A stretch of 64,000 bases of DNA from Euglena gracilis (lineage: Eukaryota): contig CP154954.1 in the NCBI GenBank assembly GCA_039621445.1, positions 49,269,847-49,333,846 of the forward strand, read 5' to 3'. Numbering within the stretch: position 1 is the first letter of the stretch; the number at the start of each line of letters is the position of its first letter. Shown here one piece after another: positions 43,801 through 54,654 of this stretch. Both the position numbers and the translations under genes were made by a program. The notes beneath the pieces were generated by a model, which did not search any database, was not told where the DNA came from, and worked only from the letters and a program-made list of their open reading frames with translations.

Positions 43801-46800
43801 GCCCCAAGTGAGGCTTCGGACCTCCGGGTGGAGGACCTGACGGGGGACCCGGCCCCGGAGGACGCCCCCGCCGCAGCCAGCGACCCTCTGGCCACGGAGA
43901 GGGACTGGTCTCTGCCGTGTGCCCCCCCCACCCCCCCCACCACCGGCTGGTCGCTGCCGGCACCCGCCCCGGCGCCGCCCCCGGCCACGCAGTGCTCCCC
44001 CTCCCTCATCCCTCCCCCCGTGCCCGCCTTTCCCCTGCCCGCCACGGAACTCCGGGAACCGGACCCCCCCAGTCCCCTTCTCAGTCCCCTTCCCTTGGGG
44101 GTGTGCCATGCCCTGGACTTTCCTGAGGCGGATGCCACTCCTGACGGTTGTATTGCCGGGCGCCCTGGGGGACCGAGTTCCTGTCTCGGCAGCAGAGATT
44201 ATCCTTAAAGCTGGAAAGATGTCAAAAAAAAAACAGATCCGAAGGGAATTTTTAAGGGGTTTGAAGGTATATTCCCAAGGGCGGCCCCAGGGCGGGGTGG
44301 ATATCGAAAACGTAAAAAAGGGAAAAAGCTCACTCTTTTCAAGTGTTGGTTGATGGACAATGTTCAAAAGATGCCAAAAATCATTTTTCTTCCTGGGGTT
44401 GGCTTGTTTTTGTTTTGCTGGACTTTTGTCACTTCATCTTCATTGATCCGGAGAACATTCTTCCAGAATGTTCTTTTTAGAGGTTTTTGTAAGGCATTTT
44501 TAGTTTTGCAGGGTTTTTGAGGCATTTTAATGCACTTTAAGTCATTTTGGACAAAACGAAGGACATTTTTTAAAGGTCAAAATATGCCCGAAAGAAATAT
44601 CGCCTACTCAGCAGGCATTCAAGGAAACCCGACTTGGGCAGTCGGGATATGCCTTTTCGATTTTTTTATTATTATTATTTTGCAATCACGCTCTCAAACC
44701 TTTTATTATTCAACGTTCACCAACCGGCGCTCGGCAGATCACCAGACAACCGGGCCCCCCCCCCCCCCGACGAACTGTCACAGACTGGGGACTGGCGCCG
44801 CCCACCGCCCTGACCAGCCCGCCCGACCCGCCCGACCCGCCCGCCGGCCCTGCAGCCGAGGCCGCAGCCACCCCCCAGCCGGCGGCGCCCAGTGAGGAAC
44901 CCGAGCCACCCCCGCGGGCCCCGCTGCCGCCCGCCGCCGACGCACCGGTGGACGGTCCGCCACCGGAGGCGGCATCACTTCCCGCCCCGCCCCCGCCGGA
45001 GCCCCCCGCCGCCGTCCCGGTGGCCGCGGAGGCGGCCCCGCCCGCCGCCCCCGCCGCAGCCAACCCCGCCGCTCCCCCCAGCGTGCAGCGCAGCCCCAAG
45101 TGTGGATTTGGCGCCGCGCTGGCCACCCACTTCCCGGCGCGGCCCACCTCGTTTGGGGGGGTGGGGGTGGAGGCGGCTTGAGGGCCTTCCCCGAGAGTTT
45201 GGCCGGTCCGCCAGGCCAACCTGGCACAACAGGATGGGGCGTACAGCGAAGGTGGAGGGGGGCCGCCGCCCGCCGCTCTCCGACCAGCAGCTGCGGCGGG
45301 CGTTCTGCTTCTTCGACCCGGACCACGCCGGCGTGGTCAGCGAGCAGGACCTCCACGTCGTGCTGCAGGCCGCGGGCTGCCCCGTCCCCCGGCATTGGCT
45401 CGGCCCGTGGGGGAGGTTGGCTGGGCCGTGTGGCCCGGCCGTGCCAAAAGATCGCCGGTCCACCCGCGTCCTGATGGAGCTGTCATGGTTGGGCAAGGTT
45501 GGGGCCCCAGGCCATTCCCCTCCGGGCTCAGGGATTTTTTAGTCTTGGACTCGGGGGGGGGGGGTCTGGCCGAGACCCCCTCGGGGTCCCCGGGGGGATA
45601 TACATTTCGGCGCTGAAGGCGCTGAAATTTTCTGAAATTTTTAGCGTTTTTTGACCATTTTCGGGGAAAATCGAGTCCCCCCCCCCCGCGGTCTTAAAAA
45701 ACCCTTTCCGGGCTGCAACGCCGGCCAGCGCCGGCCAGCACCCCCGGCCCCGACCCCCGCCGCCAAGCTGTCGTTTCCCGCCTTCCGGCAGGCTGTCCTT
45801 CACCTGTGGGAGAAGGTGCCCAGGCTGGGGGGAACCCTCCCGCCTCCAACGAAAGGTGATGACGGAACAGGGGGGCGATCCCCCCCTGCTCCCAGGTGGG
45901 TGGCAGCTCTTTACGGTAAGCGCTCACCCCCAAGGATGCCGTGGAAACCTGTGAGAAGGGATATTGGGCTTTCGGGTGCTTTATAGCTTTGAAAGGTGTG
46001 AAAGCTGGAAAGCTGTACACAAAAGCAGTGAGCACCCCAGGCCTGCAGCTGCCCTACGGTGATCTGCCCGGGCGACTCATGGCATTTGTTGAAGGTGCAG
46101 CAGAACAGGTCCGTGCCTCGTCATTTGCTGACCGATTGCGAGTCGGATCCCAATTGCGTGCCTCTCCCACTCTTTGGCACGCTGTTTCCAGGATTGTTGG
46201 GCCGCCACAGAACCCAGCCACTCCACCTCTTTACCCTGACTCTCCTTGAGATCCTTGAGATCTTGCAGGAATGAGTCCAAATGGGCCAACCTTTCTTTGC
46301 TCCCATGCTTTTCTGGATGCCAATCGCAGGTTTTCCATGTTGCGGATGTACGCATTGTGCTTCTAGATGCGACTCTCGTTTATAGGATACCCTCAGTTTA
46401 AAATGGTGGCTTATTGCAATCCCTCTGGGGCAAACTTTTTTTGGTGAAGTGTGAGAAAAATATATTCACCCAAATCGCCCACCCACCCACCCACCCACCC
46501 ATCCACCCACCCACCCAGGAGGGAGGGAGTATGCCTGTCCAAACAGCACACAATGCCTGTCCAAAGAGCACAGGAGGGGTATTAGCAGGCCTATTTGTAT
46601 CCTCGCACCGGGTTCACGTCGGGCAGATGGCTGAGTTTGAGGTGAACTGCCTCGGACGGCGTGTATTCTTTCAATCCCTTCGGCTAGGAGTGCGACGCCC
46701 GCTATGCCGCCACGTCCAGCGAGCGCAACGACGTGCGGCGCCTCTTCGACCTTCTGGACCATCGTGGCGTGGGCGCCCTCTCCGGTGCGGTCATGGAGCG

Positions 46801-47860
46801 ACTGAGGCGGCCCCTCGCTTCCGAGTTCTAGTCCCTCAGGTCCCTCATTTTTTTGGAGTTCTTGTTCTTATTGCTCTCTTTTACGATCCGAATTTTTGGG
46901 TCCAGGTTTTGCACCCCCCCCACATGTCGGACGTCGGCTGGCCCAAGAAAGAAATTTGGTTGCCGGATTGTGACTGAAGGGTGACCTTGTGCCATCAGCA
47001 CAATGCCTGCCATCATCGCAAAGCTGCTGCATTTCGTGTGATGTGTGTGTGTGTGTGTGTGTGTCTGTGTGTGTGTGTGTGTGTGTGGGTGGGTGGGTGG
47101 GTGGGTGGGTGGGTGTGTTGGCGGACCTGTTCAGCAATGGCTCCTTCTCCTGTTGTTGGCAGTTTAGCCTGTTGGAAGCGGTGGGCCGCATCCGGCAACG
47201 CCCTGGGCGTCATTTTCCACTGGCGGCTATTTGTGGACCCAGAGCAAGATGCATTAGCCAGGGGGTTGGTTACCTTTTGGGGGGGGGGGTGATATGAAGG
47301 CAGCACGAGATGGGCTTGCCAACGTTTGAGGCAAAACGCCCATGCAGTGATGTTGCCCATGTGGTTCCTGACGGCAATGCTTTGCGGTGCTACGAGGGCC
47401 TTGTTGACCTGCCACGGGGAGCCAGGCGCTGGGGTGCCGGGCCCCTGACCCCAACCTTCGCGCAGTTCACGGCGATGCTGGAGCAGTACGGCCGGGCGTA
47501 CCCGCACTACGCCGTGGCGGAGAGTGCGGTGGCCCTCCTGGAGGTGGCGGAGACCCGCCTCATCCGCCGGGTGTGGGTGGCCCGCGTGCCCGCCGCAGAG
47601 CCCCCACTCTGCCAGCCCAGCCCACCCTTGAAGCCTCCTGGGCTCCTTTAACTTCCCCGAGCAGGAGCAGAGCCGCGCCAAAATTTGGCTGAAAAATGGC
47701 CGTGTAGCCCAAAGGGTTGGGGGAAAAGTAAAGCATGGTTGGATAGGGCATTCCAAGAGCTTCATTTTTACTCTCCAGACATTTTCTTTGATTTTGCTTC
47801 ATCGTCGAGATATTTTGGAAAAATCGATTTTTTTTGCTGCCGGCCAGCTCTGTCCCATAC

Positions 47861-47895
<35 letters not shown>

Positions 47896-49277
47896 CCGCG
47901 CGCGCGCGCGCGCACGCACAGACACACACACACAGTGTCTGCCTCCCCCCCCCCCCGACAGGTGGCCGTCACGGTGATGGGTGCGCGCGACATCCTCGAG
48001 AGCGATGTGTACGCAGAGGTGCTGGTGGACGGACGGCAAAAGTCCACGCTGACCAAGATCTGTACTAGCCGCCCCGAGTGGGATGAGCCCAGGCCGGACG
48101 ATTCAGCCACCTCCCCTCTGTGAAACATTTGCGGCACTGGCCTTGGTTTCCTGGTAATTCAGTTGCTGTTTCTTTAGCAGGGCGGGAACCAGGGATTTTT
48201 TTAAGTTTGGACCCCCGGGGGGAGGGAGGGGGGGGGGTAGGGTAGGTGGGTCCGCCGGACCCCCTCCCCCCCCCCCCCCGGGGGGGGGGGTCCCCCCCCG
48301 GAGGCCTGTGGGATATACTTTTCGGCGCCGCAGGCGCCGAAAAAATTCTATTTTTAGCACTTTTCGCGATTTTTCGGCCATTTTTTTGCGGGTCCCCCGG
48401 GACCCCCTCCCCCCCCCCCGGGGGGGGCGCCCCCACGGGGGAGGGGGGGTGGGGGGGGACCCCCCCCTCCCCCCCCCGGTCTTAAAAAAACCCCTGGCGG
48501 GAACACACACAGGTTTTTTTGCATGTTACAAAATTTGCGTTTTTCTCGTTTGTGTGTGTGTGTGTGTGTTTTCCCAGTGTTTTTTATTTTTGCTGGAGAA
48601 ATTTTTCGACAATGAAAAATTCTTGTTTTTGCCCCCAATCTTTCCCTGAGATGAAAAATTCTCTCAATTTTTTTTGTCATTTTTGAATTTTTTGGTCAAC
48701 AAATTGCATATGTTTGCCCGAAACCCAAGGGTCGGACCAACCTGTTTCCCACGGGGGAGGGGGTTGTGGCCCTTGACTACACAGCCAGGCAGCCTGGGTA
48801 TGGTGTGCGCTCCATCCGGGAGCATCCTCCTCATCCTCACTCTTTTGGGTCCTCGGTGGGTTTGACATCATTGGCGGTTCGCAACCTCCTTATTCGACCT
48901 GCCTGTTGCCAACGTTGGAGTTTGTCATACTCTCCAGTCAACCATCACCAAAGTCCGTAACGGTGGTGTTAAAGCACCGTGACAAGACAAGTGAGGTGTA
49001 CCCCACAGTGTCCAATGTGCATTCATACAGCATTCTGGATATGAGCCCGCAACCACGTCTGCAATCAACAAGGACACACACACACACACACAACACACAT
49101 ACACACACACACACATATGCCCGCACGCACACACACACATACACACGCACACGCACACACATACGCGCACATACACACACATACACACAAGCACACACGC
49201 ACACACACCCACACACCCACACACACGCACGCACACACACACACACAGACACACACATTCACACACACATACACATG

Positions 49278-49340
<63 letters not shown>

Positions 49341-49549
49341 CGGGTTAGCGCGCAACTGCACAATGACGACCCACACCGTCCACTGCGTTGCAGGACCGAA
49401 TCGTGGGGCAGGCCACAGTGGCCATCACCGCCCAGCGGGGCTCCCTCGTCAACGAGTACCGGCTCTGCCCGCCCCTCAGCAGCGCCTCCTCAGGCTTCGT
49501 GACCGTCGCCGTGCGGCTCTGCTTCCAGGACCCGGCGGTGCTCACCTGC
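40804..49549 (+). CDS. 5' part of a large multi-exon gene: Pro/Ala-rich region, EF-hand-like motifs, C2 domain
   Basis: Exons 40804-40917, 41341-~41460, further islands at 41720-43120, 43720-43986, 44783-45101, 45247-~45407 ([21 protein letters not shown]), ~45752-45815, 46688-46783 ([17 protein letters not shown]), 47457-47576, 47962-48086 ([24 protein letters not shown]...PEWDE), 48911-48995, 49394-49549 (DRIVGQATV). Joins from 43720 onward are in frame; linkage of the earlier exons is less sure. Confidence 0.7.
42188..42310. mobile_element. TA-flanked MITE
   Basis: Inverted ends CCTAC(n)TGGGAAACTGTCA / TGACAGTTTCCCG(n)TAGG; TA on both sides. Confidence 0.75.
42412..42650. repeat. ~70-80-bp tandem repeat, about 3 copies
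   Basis: Unit GAACCGTTTTGGAAGCGAATTCCTTTTGCTGCTCAACTGTCCCAGGGCCCC...AAAATCCCC recurs. Confidence 0.9.
43423..43595. mobile_element. TA-flanked MITE
   Basis: Inverted ends CCCGC(n)GGGCAATTG / CAATTGCCCG(n)CGGG; TA flanks; internal CAATTGACGCCCCCGGG repeats. Confidence 0.75.
45529..45706. mobile_element. hAT-like MITE nested in an intron
   Basis: TIR CAGGGATTTTTTA/TAAAAAACCCTT; perfect TSD TCCGGGCT (45521-45528, 45707-45714). Confidence 0.8.
48190..48496. mobile_element. hAT-like MITE nested in an intron
   Basis: TIR CAGGGATTTTTTTAAG/CTTAAAAAAACCCCTG; perfect TSD GCGGGAAC (48182-48189, 48497-48504). Confidence 0.88.
49074..49340. repeat. Degenerate (CA)n microsatellite
   Basis: Directly visible. 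Confidence 0.9.
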
Positions 49550-49913
49550 GTCGGGAAGCCGTACCACTAGGGCGGCCCCCCCCCCCCCCCCCCCGTCCTC
49601 GCCTGGCCCCGTAGGCGAGGGTCCGGACCAGCCGCCCCCAACGTTGGCCTCCCGTCAAACCCAGCTCTCCCCCTCCCCAGGCTTAATGGAAGTCTCCGAG
49701 ACGGGGGGGGGGGACCGAAGCCAGGCCGAAGCCAGGCCGAAGCCAGGCCGATGCCAGGCTAAAGCCAGGCCGAAGCCAGGCTAAAGCCAGGCCGAAGCCA
49801 GGCCTAAGCCGGGGGTCCGACTGATCGACTCCACTCCCCCTTGGCCTTCCCGTGCCACTCCCCCCCCCCCAACGGCCCGATGAGGCGCCGCCCTGCACCA
49901 CATCCCGCCTCAG

Positions 49914-50095
49914 GTGGGCACGCCGCGCCGCAGCCGCCGGGCGCTGGTGGTCGGCATCAACTACCTCACGTGCACCCTGGGCCGGCCAGGGGTTGTGGTT
50001 CTTGTGGTTCGTCTCCGCACACACCCACACATCCGCCTGCCCCCAAGCACGCGCGCCTGCACGCTGGCACACACACATACACGCACACACGCACG

Positions 50096-50126
<31 letters not shown>

Positions 50127-53100
50127 GCAGACACATACGCACGCACACACGCATGCACGCACGCAGACATGCGCGAGCGCGCACAAACACACACACCTAC
50201 ACACACGTGTAGGGGTTTGGCCGAGGGGAGAGGCGCCCCTGCCACCGGCTGTGGGGCTGCATCAATGATGCCCGCCACGTGGCTGACATGCTCTGCCAGC
50301 AGTACAACTTCTCCCCGGATGCCGTCCGGGTCCTGGCCGGGGCCCCTCGCTGATACACATCGTCCCACGCAGGCATTGGGTCTGGGGCTGTGCCTCTCTC
50401 CCGGTGGTTCACGCCCTGCCATGCTGCAGTCCGGGATGGTGTTGCGTCGCCTGGCAGGCCGGAGGGGGGCGAACATGACAGCAGCAACATGGGCCGCCCA
50501 ACATGTTGTAGGTCGACGCGGTTGATGTTGATGGTATAGATGCTGTAGAGGGTGGGGTGGGGAAGCCCACGCCTGCAATTTCAAGCATCACATGTCATGA
50601 CTGAAAAATTGCACAGAAATACCCCTCCCAAAAACGTGTCAGAAAAATTCGGAAGAGTTCAATAGAAGAGGGTGGGCAGGCACGACATTGGCTCAAATCA
50701 GTGAACGGTCGAAGCGTCGAACAGTGAAGCACCACACCATGTGCCCAGGGCACAATGTCACCCCCGCAAATGACACCCTCCACGCTGTCCCACGGGCCCC
50801 AGGCCGTCGAGGGTTCCGAACCGACGGACGATGCAGAGGAACGGGCGGTCCCCACCGCCGCCAACCTCCGCCTCGCGCTGCAGGCGCTGATGGCGGGCGT
50901 CGAGGCGGGCGACACGGTGGTGTTCCACTTCAGCGGGCACGGGTCACAGGTGTGTCACCCCCCAACGTGCCAGGTTGTGCCGAAGCGTCCTCCAGCAGGC
51001 CATGCCACTGGCTGACTGGGTAGCCTGTCACTCGTTGGCGGGATGTCGTTGTTGTTACTGTCACTCATTCGCTAAGCCAACGTTGCAACGTTTCTCATGT
51101 TGCATAATTCTGCAAAGGTTTTGTCTGGCTGAGGAATGCTATTTGTCTTCTTTTGGGAAGCCTTGCACCCGTCGGAGATGAATATTGGCTGCTATCATGC
51201 CCCCCCCCCCTAGTTGAGGACAAATATCATTATAAATTTGACTGGGGGTCGGCAGGATGCATTCCAAAGAACAAGTGAAGTTTTCAATGCCAGATTTGCA
51301 CATTCCAGACAAAGAAGTAACAAAAAAGAATTCTATTTTGGGCGTATATCACATCATACACCACGGTATTGTCTGTGATGGCATGTTTCCAAATGATGTG
51401 GATGTGACCCCGCCTCCAGTGTCCAAAACCTGACAAATTCCAACAACACACCCAAACCCCAGAATGTCTCCACGTGCTTCGCCGCAACCTCCCACTTGTG
51501 CACGTGACCTCTCATCCCCCCGCAGGTGATCCAGGCGGACGCCGCCACGCAGGAGGATTGCCTCCACGACTGCCTCTGTCCGGCGGACATGGACTGGGCC
51601 GGCAACGCCCTGACGGACGAGGAGCTCGACCGCGCCCTCGTGCACGACTGCCCCCCGGGGGTGCGGGTGACGTGCGTCCTAGACTGTGGCCACACCCCCA
51701 GCGGTTCCCCAGCTGCTGGTGTGCCAAGCAATGGGAAAGGGGATGGGCATCACCACCCGAGTCGCTGATTGGCATCTTCTGGCGGGTTTGGGGAGTCTGT
51801 GCCCATATTTTGAGGAAAAGGGGTTAGGATCGGCGCGCTGAAAATTGGCCAGTTTTGGGTCAACAGTTAGGCCAGAAGTATGGTCCCCGTTTCGGAAGAC
51901 TTTTTGTGAATCCCTTTTCCTAAGAATTGCTGTATATATGTATTGTATGTGTACATGTGTTATACATGTACTGTAAATGTATGTGTACATATGTATGTGT
52001 GTGTGTATATGTATGTGTGATAGGTGTGTGTGTGTGTGTGTGTGTGTATCATGAATATATGGGTCATGAGGGAGTGGCTTTCCTTCAGTATCCTGGGCCA
52101 TTGTGTCTACACCTAAAAATTGTTGGAGGATGCTCACGAATATCCACTGACGTTTTTTTTTTTAACCTTGCATGCAACAGAAAATTCAAAATCGGCAATT
52201 CAGAAAAACCCACGAGAGGTTCTCTTAAGCTGGATGGGGCGCAACCCCCAAGGGGGGGGGGGTCCAGCCAGCACCTCCCAGCCGGGTTTCGGACCCCCCC
52301 ACCGAGTGTTCTCTGGAAAAAAAAAGTTGGTAAATAAAGCTGGGTTCAGCCTGGCGAAGCTGGGTGGACCGAAAATTTTTTCGGGTGGGGGTCCAGCCAG
52401 CACCTTTTTCCAGCCGGCCCACGGGACCCCCTGGGGGTTTTTAAGAAATACCCTGCCCCCCCCCCCCACATACCATCAGATTGGGAGGCACTCCACACTC
52501 CAAACGCTCTCACTCGTCGCTCAGGTGTGGCACGGGCCGCTTGCCCGCTTAAGGAGTGCCACACCGCGGCCCGGTACCTGCCGCCTCCCCCCTCGATCCT
52601 GGATCGCCTGGCGACCGTCGCTCCGCAACAACCGCCGCGCCGGCGCTCCAAGCCAGACCGTAGTCAAGAGGCGAAGGTGGTCACGCTGTTGACGGGCTGT
52701 CAGGTGTGACCTGTGCCGCCGCCGGTGGCCGTCACGTCACGTCACGTCACGTCACGTCACGTCACGTCACGGCGTATTCGGTACGCGTTGTCCCACAGGA
52801 GCACCAGGCGGCTCAGGACACCGTCCTGGACGGGGCCAGCCAAGGAGCTTTGACGTGGGCGATGCTAAAGGTGTTGGTGAAGAGCCGTAGACGGCCCTCC
52901 TTGAGTCCTGTCATGACGCAGTGAAAACAGAAACGCCATCGCATGGATTGCTGCGGTTGCTGTACCAAACCACCTGCAGCTGACACGCCGAAGGTTTTGA
53001 TTCAGGGCTGGGAAGTGGAGTGTTGATGGCTGGCGAGGAAAGGAGCAAGCACCAATATTTATGGAATGGCTGTGAACTGGGCCTGACTTGGGCCTGACTT

Positions 53101-53418
53101 GGGCCTGACTTGGGCCTGACTTGGGCCTGACTTGGGCCTGACTTGGGCGTGACTCGACGTGACTGGGTCTGGGATGCTGGAATACTATGGGTGCTTGGAA
53201 AGAAGGCATGGCATGAGTGTGTTGGCCGCCCTGCAAAGGCCGCCCCGGAAACGGATCGGGTGGGGCCGTCGCCGCAGTACCGCGTCACCGCGGAGGGCCT
53301 CTGCCGCGCGGTGCGGGAGCTGCTCCGCCGGCAGCGGCTGGGCCAGGTCCCCGGCCTGCGGGCCTCCGGCCCCCAGTGCCTCACCGCCCCCTTCATCTCC
53401 GGCCCAGAGGGGCCGTGA
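49914..53418 (+). CDS. Metacaspase (peptidase C14) domain, 7 exons; probably the C-terminus of the EF-hand/C2 gene
   Basis: Exons 49914-49983, 50247-50335, 50803-50949, 51526-51703, 52525-52703, 52799-52886, 53276-53418 give RRALVVGINY...LWGCINDA...PTAANL...FHFSGHGSQ...CLCPADMD...LTDEEL...VLDCGH...RYLPPP...LLTGCQ...QGALTWAML...QVPGL..stop, the metacaspase motifs in canonical order. Confidence 0.9.
52731..52770. repeat. (GTCAC)8 microsatellite
   Basis: Directly visible inside intron 52704-52798. Confidence 0.9.
53046..53197. mobile_element. Mini hAT-like MITE, CAAGCAC family
   Basis: TIR CAAGCACC/GGTGCTTG; TSD GAAAGGAG/GAAAGAAG (7/8); (TTGGGCCTGAC)n array; right end similar to the 2161-2293 element. 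Confidence 0.8.
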
Positions 53419-53824
53419 CCCGTCCCAGCCACCTACCCCGTCCGCTCGCGCCCGTCTTGTCGTGTCGTGCCTCCTTCGCCCCCTGCGTCAGATCAACATT
53501 TACCCACTCCACCTCCCCACCCTTGTACACCTGTACATAAACCCTGTCCCTCCCCGTCGCCCCCAACCCGGGACACTGTTCAATAGGCCGTCCACCAACC
53601 TGCATGTCGCTCGCTTGCCTGCGCTGGGTTGGGATTCACACTTGTGTCCAAGGTTGCTTACTCCCTAGCCCCAAGGTCCGAAGATGGACCTGGAATTCAC
53701 TATTAATTTTTATTCAATTAAAATTGATTTTTCAGTTGATTTTGTTGGTTCAGTTTATGCTTTCGGTATCAGATAGCACGCAAACCCTAAATTTCGGTTT
53801 TGCACATCTGAGGCATGACGTATG

Positions 53825-54654
53825 CAAGCACCTCCAGCGAAAAATCCCGACAACTCCCTGCAAATTCCGACGAACCCTGACAAATCCTGACAAATCCAGA
53901 CAACACTTTTTTGGACCTCTGGAGGTGTTAGTTCCGACAAATCCCGACAAATTCCGACAACAGTGCAATTTTTTTTGGAAGAATAGATTGTTGACAAAAA
54001 GATGGACAAATTTGCCCAAAAGGAATATTATGATGATTGATTCTGGTGTCTGTGTTTATAAAAAAAGAGGTTTTTTTTGTGTCTCCAGAGGTTGTTCGAA
54101 AATGAGACTCCCTAAACAACAATCAAAAACAGCAAAACTCACCCAAAGTGGCCAGAAGTGATTTTGATGGTGACCGAAAGTGACAAAAATAGCCATAGCC
54201 GTGGCCAAAATTTTCAAATGTGGTCGAAAAGTGGGCGATTTTGGCCAAATGTGCTAAAAGCAGTCAAAGGCAGCAAAAAAGTGGTCAAAATTGGCCAAAA
54301 TGGTTTGAAGGTGGCAACCGTGGACAGAATGGGCCAAAACCAGCCAAAAATGGCTCACAGTGTGCAAAAGTGGAAAGAAAAGAGTGTTCCAAAGTCAGAA
54401 AAGTGGCCTAAAAAAAAAAAAAAAAAAGAAGGCCAAGCGTGGGCAAAAGTGCCCAAAAGTGGCCAAAAGCAGTCAAAAGCCTCCAACAGTGGCCAAAAGT
54501 GGCCTGACGTTGGCCAACAGTGGGCAAAAGTGGCAAACGTCGCCAAAAGTCGTCATTTCCTCAGATCAAATACTGCCATAAGCATGTGCCGGGACTCCGA
54601 CATTCAAAACCCGACAAATCCCAACGACATTATTAAAGTGCCTGGAAGTGCTTG
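53825..54654. mobile_element. Non-autonomous hAT-like element, CAAGCAC family
   Basis: TIR CAAGCACCTCCAG/CTGGAAGTGCTTG; TSD GACGTATG/GACATGTG (6/8); AAATCCCGAC-type arrays at both ends. Confidence 0.8.

Follow-up and report, generated by a model that had tools for sequence, protein, structure and literature searches.

The stretch examined here (the window) comprises 64,000 nucleotides (nt) of Euglena gracilis DNA (GenBank assembly GCA_039621445.1, contig CP154954.1, positions 49,269,847 to 49,333,846 of the forward strand), and all coordinates below are counted from its first letter. How metacaspases, which are proteases that depend on Ca2+, are regulated and what roles they have outside cell death are matters of debate, and an earlier note, made from the sequence alone, had proposed that a metacaspase encoded here is fused to EF-hand-like motifs and a C2 domain. 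We found that the locus holds an E. gracilis nuclear gene of 16 exons on the + strand, which runs from an ATG at 45234 to a TGA at 53416-53418 and encodes a product of 622 amino acids (aa). When the exons were joined by their coordinates and translated, the 622-codon frame was unbroken by any stop or frameshift, and the position 53418 at which the note had ended the gene proved to be that of a true stop codon. Together with the spliced RNA described below, this uninterrupted frame bore out the proposal that three modules (EF-hand-like, C2-like and metacaspase) are present in one protein.

The exon structure was derived from RNA sequences compared over 44000-54200, namely contigs of three runs (X1, X2 and X3) and the raw RNA-seq reads of a further run (X21). 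Nineteen runs of one organism (X1 to X19) hold 17-25% of the sampled words, in exon-sized pieces, and were classed as RNA by guess only; one further run holds 76% of the sampled words, and X21 to X24 are raw RNA runs by their species label. Twelve intron-like joints were seen among the matches listed, besides 140 further joints. Five of the 12 have GT..AG borders (46106>46686, 48993>49392, 50946>51523, 51717>52524 and 52700>52796) and seven do not (46804>47194, 47255>47453, 48086>48911, 49562>49897, 49981>50245, 50334>50823 and 52885>53275). A single 1681-nt X3 contig extends from about 46061 to 53470 through all of the joints, and the exons joined from the start of this contig form one open frame to the TGA at 53416-53418.

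The joint that links the C2 part to the metacaspase part is 49562>49897. It was found in X1, X2 and X3, each time in a single contig (depths 82.5, 18.3 and 101.7, respectively), and in six raw RNA-seq reads of X21 with six different starts, and its depth equaled that of the adjacent joints. Five letters (ACCAC) fit either side, so that the joint may be placed anywhere up to 49567>49902. It ties base 1 of a codon to bases 2 and 3 in the metacaspase frame, so that the reading frame continues, and the TAG at 49568-49570 is gone from the spliced form. As the note had stated, no ATG stands in frame in the first metacaspase exon after the stop at 49881-49883. We concluded that the EF-hand-like, C2-like and metacaspase parts are joined in one mRNA. 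The in-frame joining of the C2 exon to the metacaspase exon had been foreseen correctly, but the junction had not: the note had drawn it from a GT at 49550 to an AG at 49913 (49549/49914), and this junction is ruled out by the non-GT-AG joint seen in RNA.

Of the 15 introns in the model, 12 were seen directly in RNA and 3 were inferred. One of the latter (47571-47961) has GT..AG borders and agrees with the X3 contig, in which 49392 falls on letter 554; the other two (45384-45737 and 45816-46048) fit a 913-nt X2 contig that reaches 45289, the depth in the corresponding bins and the reading frame. Exon 1 is covered by the X2 contig to 45289 and by an X1 contig to 45268, exon 2 was placed by length bookkeeping of the 913-nt contig and by about 77 nt of depth in the bin 45705-46045, and the 5' border of exon 3 was set by the AG at 46047-46048 and a 57-nt side in X2. 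The alignment with the family of EF-hand-bearing relatives described below is colinear from the first Met and free of gaps at each exon joint, including both joints of exon 2, and the relatives begin at a Met equivalent to the ATG at 45234; this colinearity supports the start codon and the 5' exons. A tblastn search with the 622-aa model found no paralogue of the gene within the window.

Table 1. Exons of the EF-hand/C2/metacaspase-like gene and its stop-bearing intron
Feature	Coordinates	Strand	Content and evidence
Exon 1	45234-45383	+	ATG and first EF-hand-like motif (loop aa 28-39); 3' border deduced
Exon 2	45738-45815	+	Second helix-loop-helix of first EF pair; both borders deduced
Exon 3	46049-46108	+	3' joint 46106>46686 in X1, X2, X3 and 4 raw reads
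Exon 4	46688-46804	+	Degenerate EF-hand loop aa 120-131; joints 46106>46686 and 46804>47194; family alignment
Exon 5	47194-47255	+	Joints 46804>47194 (11 raw reads) and 47255>47453 (7 raw reads), both non-GT-AG
Exon 6	47453-47570	+	End of EF-hand region; 5' joint seen, 3' border deduced (GT at 47571)
Exon 7	47962-48086	+	First third of putative C2; 3' joint 48086>48911
Exon 8	48911-48993	+	Middle of putative C2; joints 48086>48911 and 48993>49392; custom C2 profile aligns through
Exon 9	49392-49562	+	End of putative C2 and linker; joints 48993>49392 and 49562>49897
Nonconventional intron	49563-49896	+	Holds in-frame TAG 49568-49570
Exon 10	49897-49981	+	First C14 strand (motif aa 335-344); joints seen; no in-frame ATG
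Exon 11	50245-50334	+	GCINDA motif; joints 49981>50245 and 50334>50823
Exon 12	50823-50946	+	Catalytic His419, codon 50938-50940
Exon 13	51523-51717	+	Active-site motif D-C476-G477-H478 at 51682-51693
Exon 14	52524-52700	+	p20-p10 linker and start of p10; joints seen; colinear with P0002
Exon 15	52796-52885	+	p10 core; joints 52700>52796 and 52885>53275
Exon 16	53275-53418	+	C terminus and TGA 53416-53418; joint seen; aligns to C termini of homologues

The two EF-hand-like motifs that the note had reported on + strand exons were recovered by Pfam as EF-hand_6 on the exon 45234-45383 (E 2.9e-4, 20.8 bits, under the 25-bit cut-off) and EF-hand_7 on the exon 46688-46804 (E 0.099). Searched as single stop-to-stop frames, the locus gave EF-hand_6 at E 0.0013, EF-hand_7 at E 0.099, C2 at E 0.028 and Peptidase_C14 at E 1.7e-4, weak matches of the kind expected if introns cut the domains; for unspliced pieces, Pfam gave nothing for 8 of 14 stretches (E <=1) and for 8 of 10 exon pieces (E <=10). 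The N-terminal 330 aa of the spliced model matched the N termini of relatives (P0035, E 1.8e-11; P0027, 2.2e-7; P0036, 5.2e-4; P0002, 8e-4), and the relatives of this region carry Pfam EF-hands above the cut-off. Judged by this alignment, the N-terminal 190 aa are homologous to the EF-hand region of protist EF-hand-metacaspases, with four predicted EF-hand-like helix-loop-helix units at about aa 15-190. Neither loop 1 nor loop 3 is a canonical 12-residue EF loop. Loop 1 (aa 28-39) keeps Asp at positions 1 and 3 and has Ala at position 5 and Asp instead of Glu at position 12. In loop 3 (aa 120-131), position 3 is Arg and positions 5 and 12 are Val, whereas nine of nine relatives have Asp or Asn at position 3, a polar or acidic residue at 5 and Glu at 12.

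A C2-like stretch, as the note had reported, was likewise recovered, in divergent form. Pfam C2 (PF00168) matched exon 7 alone, the first C2 exon (E 0.028 / 0.16; 15.1 bits versus a 22-bit cut-off). A custom profile built from the C2 parts of eight C2-metacaspases (see below) scored 10.4 bits over the full sequence, with the best domain at 9.7 bits (p 4e-5) covering aa 208-277 across two splice joints, and the score of the protein exceeded those of all 2000 shuffles. These matches point to a divergent C2 domain spread over three exons (about aa 196-310), the similarity of which to the C2 of C2-metacaspases is weak (E 0.084). The acidic pair of the domain (profile consensus vfDeDk), the columns of which we take to be Ca2+ ligands, is replaced by VLKHRDK. 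In the EF-hand-bearing relatives, the counterpart of the three C2 exons is a short acidic/Pro linker, suggesting an insertion into an EF-hand-metacaspase; the C2 would have been gained between the EF-hand and C14 modules of such an ancestor.

For the metacaspase part, Peptidase_C14 (PF00656) scored 48.5 bits against a 21.4-bit cut-off on P0001, an existing database protein that is the product of exons 12-15, and BLASTP with the spliced C14 domain found P0035 (E 1e-53, over about 290 aa) and P0002 (E 1e-50) at 34-35% identity; a type-I-like metacaspase domain is predicted at about aa 334-620. Exon 12 matches the PDB metacaspases AtMC9, AtMC4 and Yca1 (E 2.9e-5 and weaker), and His419, in HFSGHG at aa 415-420, aligns with the His of these three proteins and of 16 of 17 relatives. 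The alignment with relatives shows conservation of both the GCINDA motif (aa 354-359) and Asp475; the Asp of GCxND and the Asp before the Cys are presumably the acidic S1-pocket residues for Arg/Lys. The nucleophile motif D-x-C-H-S-G, however, reads D-C-G-H-T-P, which puts Gly477 at the nucleophile position, a column occupied by Cys in 16 of 17 relatives and by Gly in P0131. No mismatch between the RNA contigs and the window was present in exon 13. Its best PDB matches, the TbMCA2 entries 4AFP and 4AF8 (E 1.8e-4), also have Gly in the Gly477 column, 4AFR having Ala, and the C213G/A forms of TbMCA2 are described as inactive mutants (PMC4357240). The same source assigns the allosteric Ca2+ site of TbMCA2 to Asp173, Asp189, Asp190 and Asp220 (PMC4357240); in the Euglena protein (chain numbering offset by 20), the first three correspond to His, Asp and Glu and the fourth to no acidic residue, so that two of the four are lost. 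The "full" metacaspase of the note is a complete C14 domain, but with Gly at the position of the catalytic Cys, and the proposal of a Ca2+-sensing, membrane-recruited, Ca2+-activated protease finds no support in the residues, given this Gly and the substituted Ca2+ ligands of the EF-hand, C2 and C14 modules.

P0131 is an environmental homologue of 840 aa that shares DCGHTP, has Ser in place of the catalytic His and carries a 530-aa N terminus with no Pfam match. A common origin of its Gly with that of the Euglena protein was considered and is not established, P0131 and the Euglena C14 domain having only 29% identity (E 2e-29).

The intron that carries the stop codon (49563-49896) has AC..GC borders, no shift within the five shared letters yields GT..AG, and the 5-nt repeat ACCAC stands at either border. 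Nonconventional introns of euglenids are described as folding into a secondary structure in which the two junctions come close to each other, and as being removed after conventional introns (PMC6221363). The centroid fold of 49563-49896 contains a perfect 8-bp helix (49569-49576 / 49887-49894), while the fold of the whole intron had a z of -1.09, 14 of 100 shuffles being equally good. Because 16 of 200 shuffles also reached its end pairing, this structural hallmark is weakly supported for the intron; when the end-duplex test was applied to all 15 introns, only 46805-47193 (0/200) and 52886-53274 (6/200) stood out. From P0001, all three GT-AG introns that separate exons 12 to 15 are gone and both flanking nonconventional introns are kept in part, and 52886-53274 is retained in contigs of X1 and X2 (depths 12.4 and 8.1 unspliced versus 39.7 and 19.7 spliced). 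Late removal was thus seen for the nonconventional introns that flank exons 12-15, in agreement with the order given in PMC6221363. The stop-bearing intron and the last intron carry 11-nt repeats: 49563-49896 holds ten copies of a tandem unit (CCGAAGCCAGG-like) at 49693-49835, and over 52857-53313 those contigs of X1 and X2 in which the last nonconventional intron is still present are without 53078-53110 (33 bases, three 11-nt repeat units), a sign of an allele or strain in which the unit is repeated fewer times.

P0001 (EukProt E. gracilis EG_transcript_9548, P009399, 225 aa) is 100% identical to exon 51523-51717, and it is identical through exons 12-15 except for one residue in retained intron sequence. 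It starts inside the intron before exon 12 and ends inside the intron after exon 15; since its ends lie in the flanking nonconventional introns and its GT-AG introns are gone, it represents a partly spliced form. Pfam finds only PF00656 in it, and the EF-hand and C2 parts stay hidden. We concluded that EG_transcript_9548 is a partial product of the same locus and the only database entry for the gene, and that the 225-aa model is a fragment since its frame was interrupted by nonconventional introns that are removed late; proteomes predicted from transcripts may for this reason contain too few multi-domain Euglena proteins. Of 70 candidates found with the final C2 exon as protein query, none was significant, so that the collection searched lacks the C2 and EF parts. 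A full-text literature search, supplements excluded, found no mention of EG_transcript_9548, which supplements to E. gracilis proteomes might list. One type I and one type III metacaspase expressed sequence tag have been reported from Euglena gracilis (Choi & Berges 2013).

Taken together, these results suggested that one gene encodes a 622-aa EF-hand/C2/metacaspase-like fusion that is probably a pseudopeptidase and not a Ca2+-triggered protease, a reading for which we have fair though not high confidence and which is based on Gly477, the lost Ca2+ ligands and the precedent of TbMCA4. In the course of events that we propose, an EF-hand-metacaspase ancestor would have gained a C2 between its modules, and Gly would have taken the place of the nucleophile Cys, with the catalytic His and the two S1 Asp residues retained and most Ca2+ ligands of the three modules substituted. 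Removal of the intron 49563-49896 joins the C2 to the protease part past the stop of the unspliced frame, and the product may bind substrates or partners, possibly tethered to a membrane, and in this way regulate active metacaspases or their targets. The structure of the gene, the fusion, the homology of the domains and the substitutions are direct results; the inactivity of the product, its membrane binding and its regulatory role we infer from sequence comparison.

Several points weigh against this reading. The runs X1 to X3 were taken as RNA by guess, and the support for the fusion stands at the RNA level, not the protein level. The joint was compared with RNA sets only, and a retrocopy elsewhere in the genome may carry the joined form. 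Three introns and the 5' end come from bookkeeping, not from joints, and the C2 assignment is weak by Pfam (15.1 versus 22 bits, one exon only). As to the active site, His419 and both S1 Asp residues are kept, a retention not required of a fully relaxed pseudoenzyme; Cys476, the residue just ahead of Gly477, is in principle a possible nucleophile; and rodent Plasmodium metacaspase 1 (MC1), as described in PMC2075530, has a similar layout and an unsettled activity state.

Pressed further, these last points would make the product an active, Ca2+-regulated, membrane-recruited metacaspase with Cys476 as its nucleophile and the EF-hands and C2 as Ca2+ sensors, which we consider unlikely. The retention of His419 and of two Asp residues, that of GCINDA and that preceding Cys476, is in its favor, but the equivalents of Asp173 and Asp220 of the allosteric Ca2+ site are lost. 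Cys476 adjoins the consensus position as does the Cys of rodent Plasmodium MC1, which has Pro at the consensus Cys position and, one residue upstream, a Cys called the predicted catalytic Cys (PMC2075530); yet TbMCA4 is inactive despite its adjacent Cys218 (PMC3220528), and PbMCA1 is itself tabulated without caspase-like activity (PMC3058108). The existence of relatives with intact EF-hands and DCCHSG, and the Asp residues kept at positions 1 and 3 of EF-hand loop 1, would suit Ca2+ sensing, whereas loop aa 120-131 has Arg/Val/Val at 3/5/12, where nine of nine relatives have ligands, and the C2 is without its acidic pair.

It is still less probable that the gene, although expressed, is decaying, with functional residues being lost from all three modules and a product that has no function. 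Key positions are indeed substituted in each module, nonconventional introns are retained to a sizeable degree (for the last intron in X1, 12.4 unspliced versus 39.7 spliced), and the only database model is a fragment. Against this, the frame of 622 codons is intact over 16 exons, contig depth is 68-102 in X1 and X3, the structural motifs of the C14 fold are conserved, and the ratio of synonymous to non-synonymous differences between the RNA contigs and the window (6:5) suggests some constraint. Euglena uses spliced-leader trans-splicing, and an EF-hand/C2 protein ending at TAG 49570 with a separately trans-spliced metacaspase, the joined contigs being read-through or assembly artefacts, can be set aside as very improbable: the unspliced sequence does carry the TAG in frame, an X2 contig has its end precisely at 49567, and a minor leader-capped form is possible, the loose ends seen being only the best-supported ones, but the precise in-frame joint occurs in three contig sets and six raw reads with six starts at a depth equal to that of neighboring constitutive joints, no in-frame ATG precedes the conserved first protease strand, and relatives have an equivalent EF-hand region fused to C14.

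Some further features of the locus were noted. The long Pro/Ala-rich tract that the note had counted as part of the protein (44750-45178) precedes the ATG and is read in another frame, which ends at a TGA at 45179-45181, 52 bases 5' of the ATG; the 622-aa protein has only one 12-residue stretch of Pro/Ala content. The open reading frame concerned (44531-45178) was rejected as a gene part, being in another frame that ends at this TGA while the homologues start at the Met of 45234. RNA depth in the bin 44682-45022 was comparable to that of the gene's exons, with loose contig ends leading to unlike Pro-rich sequence, and the frame may represent the final exon of a gene lying upstream or belong to a repeated Pro-rich coding family. 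At positions 45306, 48029, 50857, 52596 and 52603, RNA contigs of different runs differ from the window, and the differences (6 synonymous and 5 non-synonymous in all) may reflect alleles, strains or close paralogues. The region is GC-rich, with many (CA)n tracts and short open frames. Imperfect long (CA)n/(TG)n tracts occur in four introns (47040-47130, 47850-47940, 49020-49414 and 49974-50200), the TG tract at 47042-47130 being an inverted match to the CA tracts. Intronic repeat elements bounded by long G and C homopolymers are found at 45540-45720, 48180-48500 and 52200-52460, two of the three having in common a TTCGGCGC...GCGCCGAA-like core and a GGTCTTAAAAAACCC end. Over these elements, RNA depth was very high (2571.9 for X1 in the bin 48092-48432), and numerous chimeric joints link 48260-48460 with 49575-49600. 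They look like a dispersed, transcribed family resembling miniature inverted-repeat transposable elements.

To place the protein among its relatives, we used a HMMER scan with P0001 over 1.84 billion representatives, which returned 4822 hits at E <=0.001, and ran Pfam on the best 149 besides the query. Among these best 149 of 4822, 8 combine C2 with C14 and 12 combine EF-hands with C14 (13 with one sub-threshold case), and none has all three modules, at a threshold that was E <=1e-5 for part of them and would miss EF-hands as degenerate as those of Euglena. By BLASTP, the best relatives of the spliced C14 domain are found in the EF-hand-bearing group, among EF-hand-metacaspases and not among apicomplexan proteins, and we infer that the Euglena protein descends from this protist family. 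The EF-hand-metacaspases (P0035, P0027, P0036, P0048, P0042, P0029, P0076, P0054, P0033, P0123, P0162, P0028 and P0002) are 448-893 aa long (mostly 450-570), with two to four EF-hands directly before an intact metacaspase domain; they are frequent in environmental transcript data, P0002 coming from EukProt Dinoflagellata sp. TGD. Like the Euglena protein, they have a homologous EF region and C14 in the same order and start at the equivalent Met; unlike it, they have a short acidic/Pro linker where it has the C2 and keep DCCHSG and canonical EF loops.

The C2-metacaspases outside Apicomplexa are P0112 (EukProt Dracoamoeba jomungandri, an amoebozoan), P0140, P0113, P0128, P0040, P0047, P0062 and P0103, of which P0140 begins within its own C2 and may be incomplete; apart from P0002 and P0112, the relatives are mostly from environmental data. 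These C2-metacaspases have the C2 directly upstream of C14, as in Euglena, whereas their C2 is strong and canonical (E 1e-11 to 1e-63), their DCCHSG is intact, and an EF-hand was not found in them. The combination of C2 and metacaspase is already known from Plasmodium MC1 (PfMCA1 / PbMC1), in which an N-terminal C2 is followed by Peptidase_C14 (PMC2075530, PMC3058108). Plasmodium MC1 resembles the Euglena protein in this order and, in rodent parasites, in having the consensus Cys replaced and a Cys one residue upstream; it differs in having Pro rather than Gly and in not being close in sequence, and no EF-hand region is described for it there. EF-hand motifs beside caspase homologues are mentioned for archaeal orthocaspases (PMC6426788).

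A full-text literature search, supplements excluded, found no description of eukaryotic EF-hand-metacaspases or of this Euglena gene. The family is possibly undescribed and would give a handle on Ca2+ sensing coupled to the caspase fold. Calpains, which are active enzymes, combine a papain-like cysteine protease with C2-like and EF-hand domains, that is, the same three kinds of module as the Euglena protein, but on a papain-like fold and in reversed order, so that the likeness is one of analogy only. A bolder scheme, which we regard as improbable, would see in the Euglena protein a calpain-like module set on a caspase fold, turned pseudopeptidase, with the late-removed intron 49563-49896 as a switch, and in the EF-hand-metacaspase family a direct coupling of Ca2+ sensor to metacaspase in protists. 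If this were true, the mRNA would yield the full fusion when spliced and an EF-hand/C2 protein of 323 aa when not, and the timing of splicing would set the ratio of membrane adaptor to decoy protease.

A close parallel to the pseudopeptidase that we favor is the euglenozoan homologue TbMCA4, in which Ser occupies the nucleophile position next to a retained Cys218 and which is inactive in vitro, autoprocessing being restored by a change of the Ser to Cys; the protein is held on the flagellar membrane by myristoylation/palmitoylation (PMC3220528). In both proteins the His is kept, the nucleophile is replaced, and the adjacent upstream Cys is kept; TbMCA4 differs in having Ser instead of Gly, acylation instead of a C2 and no EF-hand region. 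If the Euglena protein is a pseudopeptidase, it would be the second euglenozoan pseudo-metacaspase after TbMCA4, one that reaches the membrane, if at all, by another device.

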